A stretch of 64,000 bases of DNA from Candidatus Doudnabacteria bacterium (GTDB lineage Bacteria > Patescibacteriota > Doudnabacteria > UBA920). A program made the translations under genes and the position numbers. Below are positions 23,939 to 40,387 of this stretch, one piece after another (within the stretch, counting starts at the first letter, position 1; the number at the start of each line of letters is the position of its first letter). The stretch is taken from the NCBI GenBank assembly GCA_003151625.1, contig PLYC01000021.1, positions 16,235 to 80,234 on the forward strand. The letters are read 5' to 3'. The notes below the pieces were generated by a model, which saw nothing but the letters and a program-made list of their open reading frames with translations, did not search any database and was not told the DNA's origin.

Positions 23939-24013
23939 GGCGCTATCATCTAATGGTTAGGATAAGTGGTTTTCATCCACTAAATCGGGGTTCGATTCCC
24001 CGTAGCGCTACCA
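23939..24013 (+). tRNA. tRNA-Glu (anticodon UUC), CCA encoded
   Basis: Manual fold. Acceptor GGCGCTA/TAGCGCT with a G1-U72 wobble. Anticodon stem AGTGG/CCACT with loop TTTTCAT. T-arm CGGGG-TTCGATT-CCCCG. Discriminator A plus CCA. Confidence 0.75.
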
Positions 24014-25508
24014 AAGCAGAATTGCCGCCTTCAAGGGCGGTTTTTGCTTGATAGATATAAGAAAGTTTCGGGGTTGTAAAAGTTTGATAATTATAAATGG
24101 GCTTAATTGGAAAAATCATACCCATCAATTTTAATTTTTGCCAGTAGGTAGTTTTAGGCCAGAGTTTTGGCAAGTCGGCTATAAAGTCAAAAACAAAGCT
24201 CACAGTGTCATCAGCGTTAAAGTCCTGGGTCGCGCTGTCGCTAATTTCCAACTGCTTATCCGCCAGTAATTCCTTGACCTTGGCAAATTCAATTTTAAAA
24301 TCCTCATCGGGCAGTAAATCTCTTTTAACCAAATCCAGCAGTTTGGCTTTTTCCTGTTTTAAGTTTTCTATTTCCTTTTTGGCCTGTTCCTGCTGTTGAT
24401 TCTGCTGTTTAAGCCTGTTTTGGCCGACATCGGTTAGCACCTTTTTAAAGGTTTCCATTATTTCTTTGGTGGGCGTAATTTTGGCCAGACACTTGTCAAA
24501 CTCGTCCTCCAAAGTTTTTTTGGTGATGGCTTTTTTAGACGGGCAGTTTTTATTGTAACAGCGGTAGTAATAATACATACTGCCCCAGCGGTTTTCCGAA
24601 GTATGGGCGGTTAAAGGCCGGGAGCATAAGCCGCAGTCAACTTGGTGGCGCAGGGGGAATAACTCATTAGTCCGACTACCGGCGATAATGTCGCCTTTGG
24701 TGAATCGTTTTAAAAGCTTTTGGTTTTTGTAATAAATATCCTCGGTAATGAGCGTGGGGTGAGAACCTTTAAATTCGCCGCGCTTGTTGCAGATGAGGCC
24801 GAAATAAAATTTGTTGGTTAAAATTTTATGCATCAGCTGAAAGGAAATTTCTTTGCCCGAAGGCGAACGCAAGCCCATTTTGTTTACCTTAATCCGTAAT
24901 TCTTCCTGGGTATACATGCCTTTGAAATACTCTTCAAGCAAAAACTTAACAAGGCCAAACCGGGCAGGGTCTAAGATTATGGTTTTGTCGTGCTTGCCGT
25001 GGTTTTGGTTGAGGTAGCCAAAAGGCGCGCGGTGCGGGAAGCGGCCGGACTTAAGGCACTGGATTATGCCGTCGGTAACTCTCTCACTGCGAACATCGTT
25101 ATCAAGCTGGGCAATGCTAGCCATCATATTTCCCATAAACTTGCCAAAGGAATTTTCGCCAATGGCTTCGGTGGTGGAAATTAACTGGACGCTGATTTTA
25201 TCCAGCAGGCTTTTTATGGCCGAGTAGTCGTTGACGTTGCGGGACAGGCGGTCAACTTTGTTGACGATGACAAAGCTGATTTTGTTTTTCTTGTCGGCGA
25301 CAAACTTAAGCATAGCCTGGAGTCCGGGGCGGTCTGCGGTCTTGGCAGATTCGCCCTCATCGGAAAAAAGCTTAATGGCCTTAATGCCTTTGTCCTGTGC
25401 GTATTTTAAGCAGGCTTCTTTTTGGTTTCCGAGGCTAAAGCCGTCCACTTGGTCGGCGGTGGATACGCGGTAATAAATCACTCCCAGTTTTTGGTTTTCT
25501 TGGTTCAT
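23973..25508 (-). CDS. Large serine recombinase (resolvase/invertase catalytic domain, recombinase domain and a zinc-ribbon). Its 3' end overlaps the tRNA antisense strand, so the true C-terminus is uncertain.
   Basis: Active-site 'YYRVSTADQ' with 'VVNKVDRLSRN'. A 'CGLCSRP...YYYYRCYNKNC' zinc ribbon. A coiled-coil tail. Confidence 0.85.
   Translation of the reverse strand: MNQENQKLGVIYYRVSTADQVDGFSLGNQKEACLKYAQDKGIKAIKLFSDEGESAKTADRPGLQAMLKFVADKKNKISFVIVNKVDRLSRNVNDYSAIKSLLDKISVQLISTTEAIGENSFGKFMGNMMASIAQLDNDVRSERVTDGIIQCLKSGRFPHRAPFGYLNQNHGKHDKTIILDPARFGLVKFLLEEYFKGMYTQEELRIKVNKMGLRSPSGKEISFQLMHKILTNKFYFGLICNKRGEFKGSHPTLITEDIYYKNQKLLKRFTKGDIIAGSRTNELFPLRHQVDCGLCSRPLTAHTSENRWGSMYYYYRCYNKNCPSKKAITKKTLEDEFDKCLAKITPTKEIMETFKKVLTDVGQNRLKQQNQQQEQAKKEIENLKQEKAKLLDLVKRDLLPDEDFKIEFAKVKELLADKQLEISDSATQDFNADDTVSFVFDFIADLPKLWPKTTYWQKLKLMGMIFPIKPIYNYQTFTTPKLSYIYQAKTALEGGNSALVALRGIEPRFSG
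24022..24047 (+). terminator. Hairpin plus T-run immediately after the tRNA
   Basis: gccgcc-ttcaa-gggcgg ttttt. Confidence 0.55.
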
Positions 25509-25720: not shown

Positions 25721-25740
25721 GGCTAAATTTTGTAATGTTT

Positions 25741-25915
25741 AAAAGCATTGAATTTATTGGTAAATTTTCTTAATTCTCTAGTTAAGAGGTATATATCAAG
25801 TCAATGGAAATTAAAAAATATAATTATTTGGCCAAGAAACCTTGAAATTTAAAATCATTGAATTTATTAAGGAATTTTATTTATTTCCAAGATATGAGGT
25901 ATAGATCAAGTCAGC
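25741..25915. repeat. Two imperfect ~65-bp direct repeats (25741-25805 and 25852-25915) beside the recombinase
   Basis: 'aaaa[gt]cattgaatttatt..gtaaatttt.tt.att.c.ag.ta.gaggtata[tg]atcaagtca' is repeated with about 111-bp spacing. Confidence 0.55.
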
Positions 25916-30298: not shown

Positions 30299-31765
30299 TT
30301 ATTCTATCCATTCTGGTTTAATTTTCCAATCTGTTTTTGGTAAAATTCCAAAATTGGATAGACAAAGTGTATTTCTTGGATCATCCATTGAAAAAGTTAT
30401 GGTAAAACCTCTACCGTCGTTATCTTTTGGTGGTTTAATTTTTCTTTCTAAATAATATTTCAGAGCATAAACTACCTTGAATCCCTTTATTTTGAATTCA
30501 TCAACAAATTTTGTAATCCTATTCACTCCTTTCTTTATTTCTCTAGCCTTGTCTGAATTTACGAAATAAGTACAATCGTATACATAACTTCCAACGATAG
30601 AACAATTGCATAATCGCGCTTCAATTCTCCCATTTTTAAATTCTTTGGCTTCAAAAAGAAGTTTATCCGATTTGATAACAAATTCAATTGATTCATGGCC
30701 AGTACATTTTATATAGAAAAGACACCCCTGTACGTCTTTGTCATTCGACTCATTTTTTACCTCCGTAATAACCTCGTCTGTTTTGCCATAAAAAAGTATG
30801 GGGCGCCAAGCACAAGGACTGTTATATCGAGTATTTTTTTCCCTAAAAATTTTGCCATTAAATAACCATTTCCTTTGCAATTTTGCTAGTTCGCCAACAA
30901 AAAAATTAATATGATCTTTTTCCAGCATGACATTGATACCATGAACTCGCTCTTTTCTTCTTTCCCAAAATGCTTGCGAACCATTTGAAAAATGCATTTT
31001 AAACCCAACCAACCCCTCTTTCTTATCGGTCAGCAACTCAAATACTTCATAATTTGGCATTCGGTGTAGTTTCTTTGTTTTTTTAAAAGAGTACCTAATC
31101 TGCCTGTATAGATCAAAAAAAGCTTGGTAAAAAGCAAAGCAGCGGGATAATTTTTCTGACAGTTCCTCAAAGGAAACTACTTTTGGTAGTCCATTTTCAC
31201 AAATTCTAAATTCAGTATCAGTTAGAGAATAATCGGAATGATAAAATGCATTCCTTATGTCATCATCAAAAAATGAATTAATTTTACTAATCAATTCTTG
31301 CTCGCCAATCTTTTCCGCTTCATTTTTAAGTGTTACTAATTTTTTTGTTGGCGACTGTGGTCTTACATGAAATGGTTTCTTTTTCCCCAATGATTCTCCT
31401 GGGAAAGGGAAAGGAACATAGTTTTTACCTTGTGCGCACCCCAATAAATTATACAGTATTTGGTACGGGGCCGACATCTCAATCGAGTGACAATATATAA
31501 GTAAGGCAACTCGAAAAGAGGATTTTTTTATACCCTTTTTGCTAATTTTTTGAAGTATTTTACTAAACTCGATTAAGGCTTCTTGTGCCTCAATAAAAGG
31601 GTCCCATCCGCCATCTTGTACACCGCTTACACGAAGCAGTGTGTAAATATACTGTAGCCCATTTGTGTCGCGTGCACGTTCAAAAAGATGGTCAAGATAA
31701 CTACGATATTCTTGATAATATGCTTTTTGTGAATCTTGGGTCTTATATTTTACAGTTGTGCCCAT
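30299..31765 (-). CDS. Uncharacterised 488-aa protein embedded between hsdS and hsdR. Candidate HEPN-domain abortive-infection-type effector.
   Basis: It sits where prrC sits in prr loci. It has no P-loop. It contains 'DDDIRNAFYHSDY' (an Rx4H HEPN-like motif). It has a Cys-rich C-terminal half. Confidence 0.55.
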   Translation of the reverse strand: MGTTVKYKTQDSQKAYYQEYRSYLDHLFERARDTNGLQYIYTLLRVSGVQDGGWDPFIEAQEALIEFSKILQKISKKGIKKSSFRVALLIYCHSIEMSAPYQILYNLLGCAQGKNYVPFPFPGESLGKKKPFHVRPQSPTKKLVTLKNEAEKIGEQELISKINSFFDDDIRNAFYHSDYSLTDTEFRICENGLPKVVSFEELSEKLSRCFAFYQAFFDLYRQIRYSFKKTKKLHRMPNYEVFELLTDKKEGLVGFKMHFSNGSQAFWERRKERVHGINVMLEKDHINFFVGELAKLQRKWLFNGKIFREKNTRYNSPCAWRPILFYGKTDEVITEVKNESNDKDVQGCLFYIKCTGHESIEFVIKSDKLLFEAKEFKNGRIEARLCNCSIVGSYVYDCTYFVNSDKAREIKKGVNRITKFVDEFKIKGFKVVYALKYYLERKIKPPKDNDGRGFTITFSMDDPRNTLCLSNFGILPKTDWKIKPEWIE

Positions 31766-35922: not shown

Positions 35923-36535
35923 TGTTTAAATATTTTTTAATCATCTCATAAAATAAAGTCTGCTCCTTTTTGTCCATTTCTTCAATATCAATGCGCAGGT
36001 CGCGGATTAGCCCATCCACCATTTCCGGCTTTATCCCCCGAAACTGTCTGGTCTTAAAATACAACAGGTCAAACAATGCTTTGGAAGGCGCGGCAATAAA
36101 AAAATCAAATTTTCCTTTTACCAAAGAGAATCCGGAAAATAATTCTTTTTTAATTGAATTGTAGCCAAAGTTTCCGGCCCGCGTCTGGTAGTCTCTGGTA
36201 ACTTTTAGCGTAACCGAGGTAATAGTCTGGATGGCTTCGGTTGTTAGTTCGTAATACTGCAAAGCCGCCCAGGAGCTGACGTAAGACGGCGTCCTAATGA
36301 CGTTGGCCAGATAAAATTTGTAGGAAATATCCGCCCTGTTGTTTTCGTAAAAGTAAGTTGTTGTATACAGCCCTTTTTTAAACTGGATAATATCCTTGGA
36401 CTTCAAAGAGCGGCCGATATAGCTATCAACCGTGGTATTTTTTAGGCCGTACTGCTTGCTTAACTGGTAAATAGCGCTTTTGTTAAAATACGGCAAACTC
36501 TTGAGCTGTTCTAACAATATTTCTCTATATTTCAT
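35915..36535 (-). CDS. Probable AbiEi-type antitoxin/transcriptional regulator, partner of AbiEii
   Basis: 206 aa immediately upstream of, and overlapping, the AbiEii-like gene. This is the typical AbiEi size and arrangement. No strong motif, so it is called by context. Confidence 0.45.
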   Translation of the reverse strand: MKYREILLEQLKSLPYFNKSAIYQLSKQYGLKNTTVDSYIGRSLKSKDIIQFKKGLYTTTYFYENNRADISYKFYLANVIRTPSYVSSWAALQYYELTTEAIQTITSVTLKVTRDYQTRAGNFGYNSIKKELFSGFSLVKGKFDFFIAAPSKALFDLLYFKTRQFRGIKPEMVDGLIRDLRIDIEEMDKKEQTLFYEMIKKYLNNE

Positions 36536-36631
36536 AATTGTGATGTAATCATAACAATGATGAAATACTTTGTCAATATGGATAGTTATTTGGATATAAA
36601 TTTAAGAAAATACCCTTTATTTATGGGTATT

Positions 36632-36790
36632 TTGCTTCCTTATGGCTTTTTATTGTAATTCTGGATCCCGTCCAGTCAAGGGTAAAACCAAATTATTTGC
36701 CATAGGCCATAAATTGGTTTTAATCCCGTTGACTGTCCAGGCGTTCCAGAATTTTGTTTTCGCCATAATCAGTAAGCAAAAAAGATTATG
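36632..36790 (+). promoter_or_regulatory. Conserved ~160-bp intergenic module, copy A (divergent region between abiEi and the radC-like gene)
   Basis: Aligns along its length with 38489-38651. Shared blocks: 'ttgcttccttatggctt', 'gtcaagggtaaa', 'tttatttgcc.t.ggccataaa', 'tttaatccc.ttgactg' and 'gccataat.agtaa'. The hairpin positions carry compensatory differences between the copies. Confidence 0.6.
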
Positions 36791-37270
36791 GAATACCAAG
36801 TCAATGTCAATTATCGGTTTCAAGCAGTTAATGAAAAGGAGGCAAAAGAAAAAGCTGTAAAATATTTAGCTAACACCCTAAAAGTCCAGCCAATGTCCAA
36901 GGCAGTATGCAGTCCCCTTGAGATTGCCGACCAGTGCTGGGATTTTAGGAAAAAGGACAAGGAGCACTTTTGCGTGTTCTTTTTAAATACCCAAAACCAA
37001 ATTATCAGCCGGGAGATTATTAGCATTGGAACTTTGAACGCCAGTCTAATTCACCCGCGGGAATGTTTTAGGACGGCAATATCTAAAAACTGCGCCTCAG
37101 TCATTTTTGTCCATAACCATCCAAGCGGCAGTCTAGAACCCTCGGACGAAGACATTGCCGTAACCAAGCGCCTTAAAGATGCCGGCAAACTTATCGGCAT
37201 CGAAGTTTTGGACCATGTGATTGTAACGGCTGAGTCCCATAAAAGCCTTAAGGAACAAGGCTTGGTATAA
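36788..37270 (+). CDS. RadC-like JAB-domain protein (DUF2466)
   Basis: JAMM/RadC signature 'VIFVHNHPSGSLEPSDEDIAVTKRLKDAGKLIGIEVLDHVIV'. Confidence 0.8.
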   Translation: MEYQVNVNYRFQAVNEKEAKEKAVKYLANTLKVQPMSKAVCSPLEIADQCWDFRKKDKEHFCVFFLNTQNQIISREIISIGTLNASLIHPRECFRTAISKNCASVIFVHNHPSGSLEPSDEDIAVTKRLKDAGKLIGIEVLDHVIVTAESHKSLKEQGLV

Positions 37271-37276
37271 GCCAGA

Positions 37277-38062
37277 CTAACTCTTTGAGCCCTTTTCGGT
37301 TTCGATTTTGAATTCTTCAAATTTGTTTTTATATGCAATAAAAAGATCTTGGGCCAAATCCAAAATTACTTTGGTATGTTTTTCCATTGTCGGCGATATT
37401 CTCTGACGCCTTGTTCTATAGCCTCGAGTTTTTAATAAGTTATCCGAGGTATTTATATCCATCTCGTGAATAATTTGATTCCTTACGGTAAAAGCATCTT
37501 TAAGTGCGTTCATTCTGTCAGCAGTGAATATCTTATTTGTGCTTAACCCAGAAGCGTCAGAAACCATACACAGTTGTCCAACGGACTGGAGGCTGTCTTT
37601 GGTCATACTGCTTAAGTATTCTTTTAAAAATATTTCCCTTGGATTTTGGTCTATCAAAGCCAAGGCAACTGTATTTAATATCTTTTCCGGACTCTTTTTG
37701 TCTATACCATTTTTAACGTAATTTCTAAATTTTTCTTGGGCATTTTTGTCTACAGTTATCAATTTTGAAAGTTTGGTTTTGGTCAGCTGTTTAACAAATA
37801 CGTCAAGTCCAGCGCAAGCAAAAATCAGCATTGCACGATATAGGTCTTGTTGGTAATGGGTAGATGGGCCACCCTTTGAGCCGCGTCTGATAATTTTATA
37901 CAGCAAATTGAAGTTATTAACGGACTCTGCTGTCTTTAGCAAAATATTGTATTCAAAACTAAAAAGACTGTCGTCCTTCTCAGCCGAAAGGTGAATTTTA
38001 TAAAATCCTAATTCCCGTTTTTTAACAGCCTTTTTCGCCTTACTGGATTTAAGCTTTGCCAT
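37277..38062 (-). CDS. Hypothetical 261-aa protein with a C-terminal HEPN-like Rx4HxxD motif
   Basis: 'AFTVRNQIIHEMD' resembles the HepT/HEPN motif R-N-x-x-x-H. The N-terminus is Lys-rich. Convergent with radC-like and preceded by a 112-aa ORF. Confidence 0.45.
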   Translation of the reverse strand: MAKLKSSKAKKAVKKRELGFYKIHLSAEKDDSLFSFEYNILLKTAESVNNFNLLYKIIRRGSKGGPSTHYQQDLYRAMLIFACAGLDVFVKQLTKTKLSKLITVDKNAQEKFRNYVKNGIDKKSPEKILNTVALALIDQNPREIFLKEYLSSMTKDSLQSVGQLCMVSDASGLSTNKIFTADRMNALKDAFTVRNQIIHEMDINTSDNLLKTRGYRTRRQRISPTMEKHTKVILDLAQDLFIAYKNKFEEFKIETEKGSKS

Positions 38063-38074
38063 AAAGATTTTACT

Positions 38075-38413
38075 TCAGGAAACATTATCGCCGTCAGATG
38101 GCATGGCCGTTGCAATTGCGTTGGTAAATAACGAATCACAGTGGACTAACAAAGACTCAATTAAACGCCCATGGTATATTGCGTAGACTTCGGAACTGAT
38201 AGTTTTGCTCTTAGGTTTAATAATAAAAAAGGTCAGCTCTTTGCCACTTTCTACTTCCGGACGGAACCACGCCAAATATTTCCATTGTTGCGCCGTATGT
38301 GTAAAATCGCCATCTTTATCATAAGACCAAGTGACTATTAGCCCGTCATCAATTGCCTTCTTAAAAGAGGATAGCACTTTATTCGGAGTGGAAGTTTCTA
38401 AATGTACGGCCAT
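38075..38413 (-). CDS. Hypothetical 112-aa protein, upstream partner of the HEPN-motif ORF
   Basis: ORF tightly linked to the HEPN-motif gene, with a 12-bp gap. No MNT (GSxxxGxxxxxSDxD) motif seen. Confidence 0.4.
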   Translation of the reverse strand: MAVHLETSTPNKVLSSFKKAIDDGLIVTWSYDKDGDFTHTAQQWKYLAWFRPEVESGKELTFFIIKPKSKTISSEVYAIYHGRLIESLLVHCDSLFTNAIATAMPSDGDNVS

Positions 38414-38488
38414 AAAATTTTCATTATTTATAGCACTATTTTAAAACTTTACTAATATAAAGTCAATTTTGCAAAAAAACCAATTCCT

Positions 38489-38651
38489 TTGCTTCCTTAT
38501 GGCTTCTCATTATACTGGCCGTTTACGGCCGGTCAAGGGTAAATTTCATTTATTTGCCGTGGGCCATAAAATCAATTTAATCCCTTGACTGCCGTAACCT
38601 GCGGCCAGTATATGATTGCCATAATAAGTAATCAAGAAAGGAGTTAATATG
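38489..38651 (+). promoter_or_regulatory. Conserved ~160-bp intergenic module, copy B
   Basis: See copy A. Hairpin 'ctggccgtttacggccgg' here versus 'ctggatcccgtccag' in A. A downstream 'ggccag' here versus 'tccag' in A. Confidence 0.6.
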
Positions 38652-38846
38652 CCTAAAGTCAAAAAGGCAGTTAGCAAGAGGCAGGGAATCACGCCGGAGA
38701 TGAAGTTAAACATCATCAAGGCGTCCTTGCAGAGAAGTATCAATTACTTTATGGAATTGAGACACTCTGTAGACCCCTCTTCCAGCGATTATCACGATTT
38801 CGGAAAAAAGGTTTCCGCGTATATCGCTGTAAAGCAGACAGTCTAA
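38649..38846 (+). CDS. Small hypothetical protein (65 aa) downstream of module B
   Basis: ORF with an 'aaaggag' RBS. Basic N-terminus. Confidence 0.35.
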   Translation: MPKVKKAVSKRQGITPEMKLNIIKASLQRSINYFMELRHSVDPSSSDYHDFGKKVSAYIAVKQTV

Positions 38847-38898
38847 CAAACACCAAAACAAAAACAAAAATCTTTCTTTAATTTTTAACCTTATCCCA

Positions 38899-39057
38899 AT
38901 GAAAATTATGACTGCACAGTTTGTCTACGAGATTACCTGTCCAAGATGCCAATACACATGGAGCGCTACCAAGGAAGAGACCTTTGACCTTGATATTGTG
39001 TCCTGCTCCCAATGTGGTTCCTGTGAGCTTGAAATTACCAAAAAGTTAGAAGCTTAA
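38899..39057 (+). CDS. Small zinc-ribbon protein (52 aa, 'MKIMTAQFVYEITCPRCQYTWSATKEETFDLDIVSCSQCGSCELEITKKLEA')
   Basis: Hand-translated. A CPRC...CSQCGSC four-Cys ribbon. Not in the track because it is under 60 aa. Confidence 0.3.
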   Translation: MKIMTAQFVYEITCPRCQYTWSATKEETFDLDIVSCSQCGSCELEITKKLEA

Positions 39058-39298
39058 AATCAAAACAAAAACAAAATTTTTTTATGGTCGCAAATTTGCT
39101 AAAACCTCCAAAAACGCGTTAAACTGAATTCATTAGCGGAATAAAATCACGGAATTGCCGTAATTCCTGGATTAAGAGGTTGTAATGCTGTGAACAGAAG
39201 GCTACCACAAAAGCCCGAACTTTGGTTCGGGTTTTTATTTATGGTAACTTAGACATTCCTTTGTCTTTTATGCCAAAGTCTGGTAAGTTTAATACATT

Positions 39299-40387
39299 AT
39301 GAACAAACAAATTATAGTGTTTTTGGGCATTGCCCAATTGGTGCTAATTGCTTTTAATCTGATTATTTACGGCTTGCTTTTAACTTTTTTCCCGGCGCTT
39401 GGTACGCACAAAGTAGAGGTGCTAATAACCGTGCTTTTGCTGGCAATATCATTTTTAATTTTTTCTGTACTAACTTTCAAATACGAAAATATTGTTCTAA
39501 GAATCGGTTACAAACTTTCGTCAATTTGGCTGGTTCTTGGCTTTTATTTTGTTTTGGCCTCGCTTATTGCGCTTATTATATATCTGCTATCCCCCATCAA
39601 CTTGTTATATTATGGTCTGGCCGCAGTGTTTGTTAGCTCGGTTTTAACTATTTACGGACTTATCAATGCCCGGGTGACCAGACTCACGAAGATAAAAATC
39701 AGCCTCCCCAACCTGCCGGCATACTGGAAAGACAAAAGCGCCATAATGGTTTCCGATTTGCACTTAGGCCAGGTCTTGCGAAAAGGTTTTGCCAATAAAA
39801 TCATAAATTTAATAAACCGCGAAAGTCCGGAAATAGTTTTTATTCCGGGAGACTTTTACGACGGCGTGCATACGGGATTTCAAAATTTAGCCAATGAATT
39901 TAAAAAAATCAGCGCGCCCCAAGGCATATATTTTTGTTCCGGCAATCACGAAATGTTCGCTGGCTACGGGCAATGTGAACAGGCATTAAGAGGCGCGGGC
40001 ATAAAAATTTTGGAAAATCAAAAAGTGGAAATCCAGGGACTCCAAATTGCCGGTGTGTCTTACAAACACGATGTTATGCCCGATTTGTCCCAGACTCTAC
40101 AAAATATAAGCCTCGATAAAAATAAGCCCAGTGTTTTACTCAAACACGTACCGCTGCAGTTAAAGGAGGTTTGGGAAGCCGGTTTTAACCTGGTGCTGTG
40201 CGGCCATTCCCACCATGGTCAAATATGGCCGGGCAGGCTAATTACCAAGCGCTACTTTAAAGGTTTTGATTACGGTTTAAAAACCTTTAACAATTTACTG
40301 GTTTACACCAGTAGCGGAGCAGGCACCTGGGGTCCGCCCATGCGCATATTTACCAAATCCGAAGTTGTCAAAATAATATTTATATGA
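39299..40387 (+). CDS. Membrane-anchored calcineurin-like metallophosphoesterase
   Basis: N-terminal multi-TM region, then 'MVSDLHLG', 'FIPGDFYDG', 'CSGNHE' and 'GHSHHGQ' phosphoesterase motifs. Confidence 0.75.
   Translation: MNKQIIVFLGIAQLVLIAFNLIIYGLLLTFFPALGTHKVEVLITVLLLAISFLIFSVLTFKYENIVLRIGYKLSSIWLVLGFYFVLASLIALIIYLLSPINLLYYGLAAVFVSSVLTIYGLINARVTRLTKIKISLPNLPAYWKDKSAIMVSDLHLGQVLRKGFANKIINLINRESPEIVFIPGDFYDGVHTGFQNLANEFKKISAPQGIYFCSGNHEMFAGYGQCEQALRGAGIKILENQKVEIQGLQIAGVSYKHDVMPDLSQTLQNISLDKNKPSVLLKHVPLQLKEVWEAGFNLVLCGHSHHGQIWPGRLITKRYFKGFDYGLKTFNNLLVYTSSGAGTWGPPMRIFTKSEVVKIIFI

Follow-up and report, generated by a model that had tools for sequence, protein, structure and literature searches.

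A candidate toxin-antitoxin-like cassette in a Doudnabacteria defence island pairs a RiboL-PSP HEPN protein with a member of a widely shared family of small partner proteins

Whether two small and closely spaced genes amount to a toxin-antitoxin system, and if so to which kind, is the question raised by a two-gene cassette in a 64,000 nucleotide (nt) stretch of contig PLYC01000021.1 from Candidatus Doudnabacteria; the whole of this stretch is referred to here as the window. The cassette encodes a protein of 112 amino acids (aa) followed by one of 261 aa, and an earlier reading made from the sequence alone (the sequence-only reading) had seen in the larger protein a HepT-like motif and possibly a divergent HEPN toxin, paired with an antitoxin other than MNT. 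It is found here that the larger protein carries a HEPN domain of the RiboL-PSP family, that its pairing with the 112-aa gene is conserved, and that relatives of the 112-aa protein stand beside a range of unrelated effectors.

The two open reading frames (ORFs) exist as had been described, on the minus strand and 12 nt apart, as do the Lys-rich N-terminus and the RNxxxHE motif of the 261-aa protein. Both are real genes rather than chance ORFs, because each has many homologues: 142 for the 261-aa protein (best non-identical E=7e-103) and 190, of ~110-112 aa, for the 112-aa protein (best E=4e-50), mostly from metagenome-assembled genomes of the candidate phyla radiation (CPR, equivalent to the Patescibacteria), with Buchananbacteria, Doudnabacteria and Paceibacterota represented. 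To examine their linkage, 11 distinct loci with 51-66% tblastn identity were drawn from a one-genome-per-species scan (80 loci) and from two loci that had been examined first; all 11 are from CPR or unclassified bacteria. The 112-aa gene lies immediately 5' of the HEPN gene and on the same strand in 10 of these 11, with a spacing of 5-27 nt (5-11 nt in the two loci examined first), and the P0206 locus again has the 112 gene and then the HEPN gene. Operonic pairing of the two genes is thus conserved, with the small gene first and tight linkage, as is expected of type II-like toxin-antitoxin systems. The genes flanking the cassette vary between homologous loci and, because the pairing persists in these differing flanks, the cassette behaves as a mobile two-gene unit. 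The lone exception among the 11, L011, has a Ymh-family HEPN gene in the upstream slot; since Ymh is itself classed as a HEPN family this locus consists of two tandem HEPN genes.

The larger protein matches Pfam PF18735 (HEPN_RiboL-PSP) with E=6.7e-9 and 36.3 bits, above the gathering cut-off of 28.4, residues 49-205 aligning with profile positions 8-166 of 191, and many of its homologues carry a precomputed PF18735 assignment; the idea of a divergent HEPN protein is therefore upheld. RiboL-PSP-HEPN was defined computationally and is a distant relative of AbiD/AbiF (Anantharaman et al. 2013, PMC3710099), and the gene is a further member of this known family. The same paper describes HEPN domains as a pair of alpha-hairpins, helices 2 and 3 being separated by an insert; an Rx4-6H motif closes helix 3 and extends into the loop that leads to helix 4, the R is followed by a polar residue, an acidic residue lies in helix 2, usually as Ex3[K/R], and R and H are placed in catalysis for characterised HEPN ribonucleases (RNases). 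An AlphaFold2 (AF2) model built with 30 homologues (predicted local distance difference test score, pLDDT, of 84.9) is all-helical, with H1 at residues 35-59, H2 at 69-104, an insert of short helices at 106-178, H3 at 181-201, a loop at 202-222 and H4 at 223-250, and this predicted order fits the published description. The motif AFTVRNQIIHEMD stands at the C-terminal end of H3 and contains R-NQII-H, a canonical HEPN Rx4H with the typical polar N after the R, and the acidic position of helix 2 is provided by D87-x3-K91, with D in place of E. The Lys-rich N-terminus reads MAKLKSSKAKKAVKKRE, and residues 1-16 have a pLDDT <50.

Conservation of the motif R and H had been set beforehand as a test on which the HEPN idea could fail. 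R194, N195 and H199 are invariant in 30 close homologues, and in a more diverse set of 77, taken from CPR, Acidobacteria, Proteobacteria, Gemmatimonadota, Latescibacterota, Dehalococcoidia and Bacteroidota, R76, D87, K91, S157, Q159, R194, N195, I197, H199, D202 and R221 are all 100% invariant. The basic loop that follows the motif helix is also well conserved in these 77 sequences (R221 100%, R218 95%, R216 82%), which makes R216, R218 and R221 a plausible candidate RNA-binding element, in a region that is poorly modelled (mean pLDDT 56-63 for residues 201-220, and <50 for 205-207). Homologues of 182 aa were considered as a possible short subfamily and this was rejected, as they start at the equivalent of M78 and look like gene calls from an internal Met.

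In Pfam the 261-aa protein has no match to HepT/DUF86, MNT or Abi_2; no usable match was obtained in NCBIfam or PHROG, and none at E<=1 in PADLOC-DB v2.0.0. A match to a non-nuclease family, which would have told against the HEPN idea, was likewise absent from Pfam, PADLOC and NCBIfam, and a scan of viral contigs gave no relatives of the HEPN gene. On these profiles the protein is a RiboL-PSP HEPN protein and not HepT. With the RiboL-PSP family it shares a score above the gathering cut-off, the Rx4H with its polar residue, the acidic-x3-basic pair in helix 2 and the four-helix order with its insert. The family takes its name from an L-PSP fusion and a ParB operon (PMC3710099), which is not a sequence criterion, and Pfam finds no L-PSP or ParB domain in the 261-aa protein or its neighbours. 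The lactococcal AbiD/AbiF proteins (Abi_2), predicted in the same paper to be abortive-infection RNase effectors, differ from the window protein in being single-gene systems as well as in their family. According to a review (PMC10952713), PF18735 is also the HEPN domain of PD-T4-2, PD-T4-5, PD-T7-3 and ApeA of E. coli, whose anti-phage roles have been shown experimentally; the window protein belongs to the same Pfam family, but their PADLOC models do not match it at E<=1.

The partner is a different matter. The 112-aa protein has no match in Pfam, NCBIfam, PADLOC (E<=1) or PHROG, a profile search of PDB sequences gave chance-level matches only, and two distant family members, P0290 and P0300, have no PADLOC match at E<=0.01. 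Its AF2 model (pLDDT 84.7) predicts the order beta-alpha-beta-beta-(short helix)-beta-beta-alpha-beta, and ends in a low-confidence C-terminal tail; in Foldseek against the PDB it resembles KA1-like and other two-layer alpha+beta domains weakly and not significantly (top match the KA1-like C-terminal domain of SOS2, E=0.05). Within the CPR clade the protein is strongly conserved, for example at DGDFTH, YHGRFIE and HCD. A profile search of 1.84 billion cluster representatives recovered 736 clusters (50% identity clusters) at E<=1e-3, nearly all of them stand-alone proteins of ~105-120 aa, and across this wide family W29 and H81 are the sole invariant residues and there are no conserved acidic catalytic residues. 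Since only these two residues are invariant, the alignment argues for a binding protein rather than an enzyme. The possibility that the 'DGD' at a beta-hairpin marks a minimal palm or GGDEF-like cyclase was rejected, as DGD is not conserved in the wider family.

Elsewhere the family keeps other company. The distant family loci (L084-L163) are from soil metagenomes, and RiboL-PSP HEPN genes adjoin the 112-family gene in none of the 58 that have enough flanking sequence. When 33 adjacent genes were scanned against Pfam, a PIN_8 nuclease was found directly 5' of the 112-family gene in 22, and TIR proteins (3), DUF4917, which is SIR2-like (2), and HNH-SAVED (1) accounted for others; PADLOC recognises the adjoining TIR (TIR-TM, E=3e-74), DUF4917 (PDC-S21, E=1e-97) and HNH-SAVED proteins, the last as an effector of the cyclic-oligonucleotide-based anti-phage signalling system type. 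Plasmids of cultured bacteria add to this range, with the 112-family gene following an annotated anti-phage dCTP deaminase in Pantoea, standing 2 nt before a NYN-domain gene in Komagataeibacter and preceding a TIR gene in Acidithiobacillus. Spacing to the PIN_8, TIR and NYN genes is 1-30 nt, and in the protein P0281 a PIN_8 domain appears to be joined through a linker to a 112-aa domain. P0281 is the one such case and, as its 112 domain still has a Met-Ala start, it may have arisen from the merging of two gene calls.

Some of these effectors appear to have been exchanged around a fixed partner. The TIR proteins of L099, L113 and L118 and the PIN_8 proteins of L139 and L162 share a homologous disordered C-terminal tail, EKPxxDxPKxxxxDLEKPxxx, that runs to the end of the protein; after a gap of 3 nt the 112-family gene begins, with a start that is nearly the same at these loci. 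This shared tail and junction indicates, at the level of sequence comparison, that effectors are exchanged by recombination around the 112-family gene; the tail could be a docking peptide, or its similarity could reflect a conserved ribosome-binding region. At one further locus (L171:4494-5375) a 112-family gene 70% identical to that of the window is followed by a 293-aa multi-pass membrane protein instead of HEPN and is preceded directly by two large serine recombinases, which may be another swap, with a membrane protein as the effector. A conserved ~199-aa gene is transcribed divergently from the 112-family gene in 11 soil-metagenome loci (e.g. L145:3177-3776(-), L130:184-600(-)), and in 8 of these a gene for 131-140 aa lies beyond it on the same strand; neither of these has a Pfam match, and the 199-aa gene of L145 has no PADLOC match.

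Members of the family are also found in temperate phages. A Foldseek search of BFVD found that a protein of Burkholderia phage BEK resembles the 112-aa model (E=9e-5, 35% identity), and tblastn located the family at 36-48% identity in 14 records of P2-like Burkholderia and Ralstonia phages. The copies in Burkholderia prophage phi52237 and Ralstonia phage YO124_1 are 40-48% identical to the 112-aa protein; that of phi52237 lies in an accessory region, with gp8 (itself preceded by a DUF4065 gene) on one side and a toxin-antitoxin pair on the other, and no recognisable effector gene adjoins the copy at either locus. Such copies in P2-like prophages might neutralise effectors of this kind as counter-defence. 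Another homologue stands alone between two tyrosine integrases. As its relatives adjoin many unrelated effectors, and sit in phages with no recognisable effector beside them, the evidence points to a broader modular role for the 112 family, as regulator, sensor or inhibitor, and not to a dedicated HEPN antitoxin.

The HEPN side is modular in its turn. Distant HEPN homologues (28-43% identity) do not have the 112-aa gene, and in 57 of 71 such loci, from many phyla, an unrelated protein of ~105-115 aa occupies the same upstream slot. This protein begins with beta-rich repeats that match Pfam PF21784 (4-fold beta flower) and continues with a GYP run, GYPGYPGYPGYPGYPGYPG. That it could be a diverged 112-aa homologue was rejected, as a hidden Markov model of the 112-aa family finds nothing in it and hhalign gives a probability of 0.4%. 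A beta-flower protein constitutes the 'Cernunnos' anti-phage system of Vibrio integron cassettes (bioRxiv 10.1101/2024.07.02.601686). The HEPN clade would illustrate partner swapping, with the 112-aa protein in CPR and the beta-flower-(GYP)n protein elsewhere; neither partner is mentioned in the description of RiboL-PSP-HEPN in PMC3710099. Libraries and literature gave no description of the 112-aa family, of its pairing with seven effector classes or of the alternative beta-flower partner in what was a narrow search, and the family and the range of its effector partners appear to be undescribed.

From these observations we put the chances at somewhat better than even (a probability of roughly 0.55) that the two genes are one operon acting as a toxin-antitoxin or abortive-infection-like defence module, in which a HEPN RNase is the effector and the 112-aa protein a modular regulatory partner; what we infer in this module is that the HEPN protein cuts RNA and is toxic, that the two proteins bind each other and in which direction regulation runs. 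In the putative active site R194, N195 and H199, which lie where helix 3 ends, would be supported by D87 and K91 of helix 2 and by the basic loop. By analogy with characterised HEPN RNases the protein is predicted to be a metal-independent RNase effector that would cut RNA, probably as a dimer, and the cutting of RNA would lead to growth arrest or to aborted phage infection. The 112-aa protein, which would be translated first from the shared transcript, most likely binds the HEPN protein and holds it in check until the partner is removed or altered in response to a trigger. Infection is one candidate trigger, and loss of the element and breakdown of the partner are others; the partner may itself sense the trigger. 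An inhibitory partner, perhaps one that is also a sensor, is favoured because the 112-aa gene is first in the operon, because the domain reads as fused to an effector in one protein and because prophages, in which an inhibitor could serve as counter-defence, carry copies of it with no effector beside them. Exchange of the partner on the HEPN side and of the effector on the 112 side is a modularity typical of conflict systems.

Small domains that serve many unrelated toxins or effectors have precedents in the hyper-promiscuous antitoxin domain PanA/DUF4065 and in the fused sensor of CapRel. The 112-aa family resembles these in its many effector families, its occasional fusion and its prophage copies, but it is not related to them in sequence, as the 112-aa protein has no DUF4065 match in Pfam. 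It is tempting to go further and to propose that the 112-aa protein represents an undescribed hyper-promiscuous partner domain, working in trans or occasionally fused, that is a common on/off switch (as inhibitor, as sensor of the trigger or as both) for at least seven effector classes, namely RiboL-PSP HEPN, PIN_8, NYN, TIR, SIR2-like DUF4917, HNH-SAVED and dCTP deaminase. This proposal is a tentative one, to which we give less than even odds.

A number of points weigh against a toxin-antitoxin-like module. Foldseek of the HEPN model against the PDB returned nothing significant, HepT being the best HEPN-like match with a probability of 0.38, and for this reason the assignment of the fold rests on sequence profiles and predicted secondary structure; a profile search of PDB sequences with the HEPN alignment gave chance-level matches only, and support for this HEPN clade is computational throughout. 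No PADLOC model matches either of the window proteins, and the 112-aa protein lacks the DNA-binding domain that is typical of type II antitoxins. Both proteins are unusually conserved for a toxin-antitoxin pair (55-70% identity within CPR). Gene order is not constant across the family, the 112 gene being 5' of HEPN, NYN and TIR but 3' of PIN_8, TIR and dCTP deaminase, and some members have no recognisable effector partner. Furthermore, pairing with enzymatically unrelated effectors is hard to square with simple blocking of an active site, and a sensor or adaptor fits equally well.

The main rival is that the 112-aa protein is purely a sensor or activator: the HEPN protein would be inert alone, and the 112-aa protein would be the constant trigger-sensing or adaptor subunit that activates whichever effector it is paired with on a phage cue. 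Sensor-effector defence systems show this combination of a small constant module and exchanged effectors, and the tail and junction shared by TIR and PIN_8, the apparent PIN_8 fusion and the restriction of invariance to W29 and H81, as expected of a binding protein, are all in keeping with it. However, copies without effectors in P2-like prophages and between integrases are easier to understand as inhibitors or counter-defence factors, no ligand- or nucleotide-binding signature can be recognised in the 112-aa protein, and the first place in the HEPN operon is the usual position of an antitoxin (PMC3710099). On balance a purely activating partner is less likely than the preferred reading of a regulated toxin-like effector, with which it overlaps in that one partner can both inhibit and sense. 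Fused toxin-antitoxin sensors, in which the partner does both, are known.

The other explanations are considerably weaker. Were the HEPN protein an enzyme of housekeeping or stress-related RNA processing, served by an accessory subunit, and not part of a conflict system, this would account for sequence conservation that is high for a toxin and for the one genome in which the cassette lies among core genes, beside ffh, rpsP, rimM and trmD. The HEPN gene is, however, distributed very patchily (82 confirmed matches in 185,579 species genomes), a rarity that speaks against housekeeping, its flanks vary from genome to genome, recombinases and defence genes are nearby here and elsewhere, and the partner found in one clade has been exchanged for an unrelated protein in another; we judge this explanation improbable. 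It would seem more improbable again that the two genes are independent neighbours, the 112-aa gene being a free-standing island gene that tends to settle near defence genes and acts on its own, for instance in defence or counter-defence. The effector-less members in prophages and between integrases and the great diversity of neighbours are what this would predict, yet same-strand adjacency within 5-27 nt in 10 of the 11 CPR loci despite different flanks, the 1-30-nt gaps to PIN_8, TIR and NYN and the apparent fusion are not.

Finally, a HepT-MntA-like (type VII) system, in which the partner would neutralise a HEPN toxin by covalent modification, is the least probable of these readings. The cassette shares with HepT-MntA its two genes, the small partner first and an Rx4H HEPN gene 3' of it, the order of MNT-HEPN pairs, and HepT chains are the best HEPN-like Foldseek matches. 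The identity of the window pair with HepT/MNT was nevertheless rejected, as the defining features are absent. The putative toxin belongs to another HEPN family and is twice as long as HepT, and neither HepT/DUF86 nor NTP_transf_2 is matched in Pfam. The motif had been described as one position off the HepT/HEPN signature; it is in fact a canonical Rx4H, and what is missing from RNQIIHEM, with HEM in place of HxY, is the tyrosine specific to the Rx4HxY of HepT. That tyrosine is the modification site in type VII systems. The suggestion that the smaller protein is not an MNT was well founded: it has no nucleotidyltransferase match in profile searches or, for the predicted fold, in Foldseek, no GSx..DxD motif and no conserved acidic catalytic residues, and it is a conserved operonic partner all the same.

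Toxin-antitoxin, abortive-infection and CRISPR systems commonly use HEPN RNases as effectors, and for this reason the HEPN gene alone is routine; the new lead is its 112-aa partner, whose family is found repeatedly next to nucleases, NADases and a dCTP deaminase, as well as in temperate phages. Control of such different enzymes by one small domain, if true, would represent a new general principle of regulation or sensing for defence effectors and would provide a handle for finding further systems through guilt by association, whilst the effector-less prophage copies might be counter-defence factors of a new class. The cassette furthermore brings the biology of defence islands to CPR bacteria, whose immune repertoire is poorly characterised, and the pair is small (112 and 261 residues) and hence easily tested in E. 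coli.

The cassette lies in a region that is a defence island and probably an integrated element (Table 1). The G+C content of the window is 42.8%. From left to right this comprises tRNA-Glu, a serine recombinase, an unknown 247-aa gene, hsdR, hsdS and hsdM of a type I restriction-modification system with an embedded 488-aa gene, AbiEii, a gene in the AbiEi position that has no Pfam match, RadC and the cassette, followed by a metallophosphoesterase, pilin-like genes and NusA. The tRNA-Glu and recombinase genes probably form the left boundary of an integrated island that carries restriction-modification, AbiE, RadC and HEPN genes; no direct repeat could be found that would mark its right end. 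The sequence-only reading had placed the cassette in one island with AbiE and a HEPN gene embedded in the hsd operon, and this stands for AbiE and the type I system, but the HEPN label of the 488-aa ORF receives no support from Pfam (E<=1e-3), NCBIfam or PHROG, in which the ORF has no match.

Table 1. Positions of the cassette, its sequence motifs, the features around it and the homologues referred to in the text; positions without a prefix are those of the window.
Feature	Position	Strand	Remarks
112-aa partner gene	38413..38075	minus	ORF
261-aa HEPN gene, RiboL-PSP family	38062..37277	minus	ORF; Pfam PF18735
Rx4H motif, residues 190-202	37457-37495	minus	R194, N195 and H199 at C-terminal end of helix 181-201
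D87-V-F-V-K91, second HEPN motif	37790..37804	minus	in predicted helix 69-104; both residues invariant
Basic loop GYRTRRQR, residues 214-221	37400..37423	minus	between motif helix and last helix
Sigma-70-like promoter candidate, TTGACT-17 nt-TAAAAT	38438..38466	minus	25 nt 5' of 112-aa start; consensus scan 10/12, pattern match only
Palindromic element of ~150 nt, 5' of cassette	38488..38640	minus	second promoter-like site at 38536-38509
Homologous palindromic copy	36631-36784		upstream of AbiEi
Weak terminator-like hairpin	37259..37273	minus	directly after HEPN stop; overlaps 3' end of convergent RadC; pattern scan
tRNA-Glu(ttc)	23939-24013		overlaps 3' end of large serine recombinase gene
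Large serine recombinase gene	23973-25508	minus	
488-aa ORF between hsdR and hsdS	30299-31765	minus	inside type I restriction-modification operon
240-aa Hypoth_Ymh (PF09509) gene	L011:5202-5924		replaces 112-aa gene, directly 5' of RiboL-PSP-type HEPN gene
Beta-flower+(GYP)n genes, examples from L014-L083	L056:5624-5947, L022:5546-5893, L077:5600-5947		
112 homologue, Burkholderia prophage phi52237 (L173)	NC_007145.2 6772-7125		unannotated ORF
112 homologue, Ralstonia phage YO124_1	L174:3489-3836	opposite to both flanking ORFs	lone gene; record unannotated

The palindromic element upstream of the cassette has its homologous copy upstream of AbiEi, the two being ~72-77% identical, with 75% identity for the direct repeat. 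Both form long imperfect hairpins (z=-8.7 at the cassette and z=-10.3 at AbiEi) in which several stem positions differ on both sides between the copies, and a sigma-70-like promoter is present on the minus strand of both. The element may act as an operator common to the two sites or as a promoter in both directions, or it may be like a miniature inverted-repeat transposable element. That it is a conserved leader of the cassette was rejected, as it is absent from all of the homologous loci that were fetched. An Rfam search of positions 36000-40000 gave sub-threshold chance matches only.

Beside the cassette there is a gap of ~880 nt that holds two small ORFs on the plus strand, one of 65 aa (38649-38846) after a good AGGAG ribosome-binding site and one of 52 aa (38899-39057) with a CxxC...CxxC zinc-ribbon pattern, and a bidirectional terminator-like hairpin is found at 39209-39236. 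At the other end of the region, a 66-nt tandem-like direct repeat (25738-25803 and 25848-25913; 80% identity, 110-nt spacing) sits between the serine recombinase gene and the 247-aa gene.

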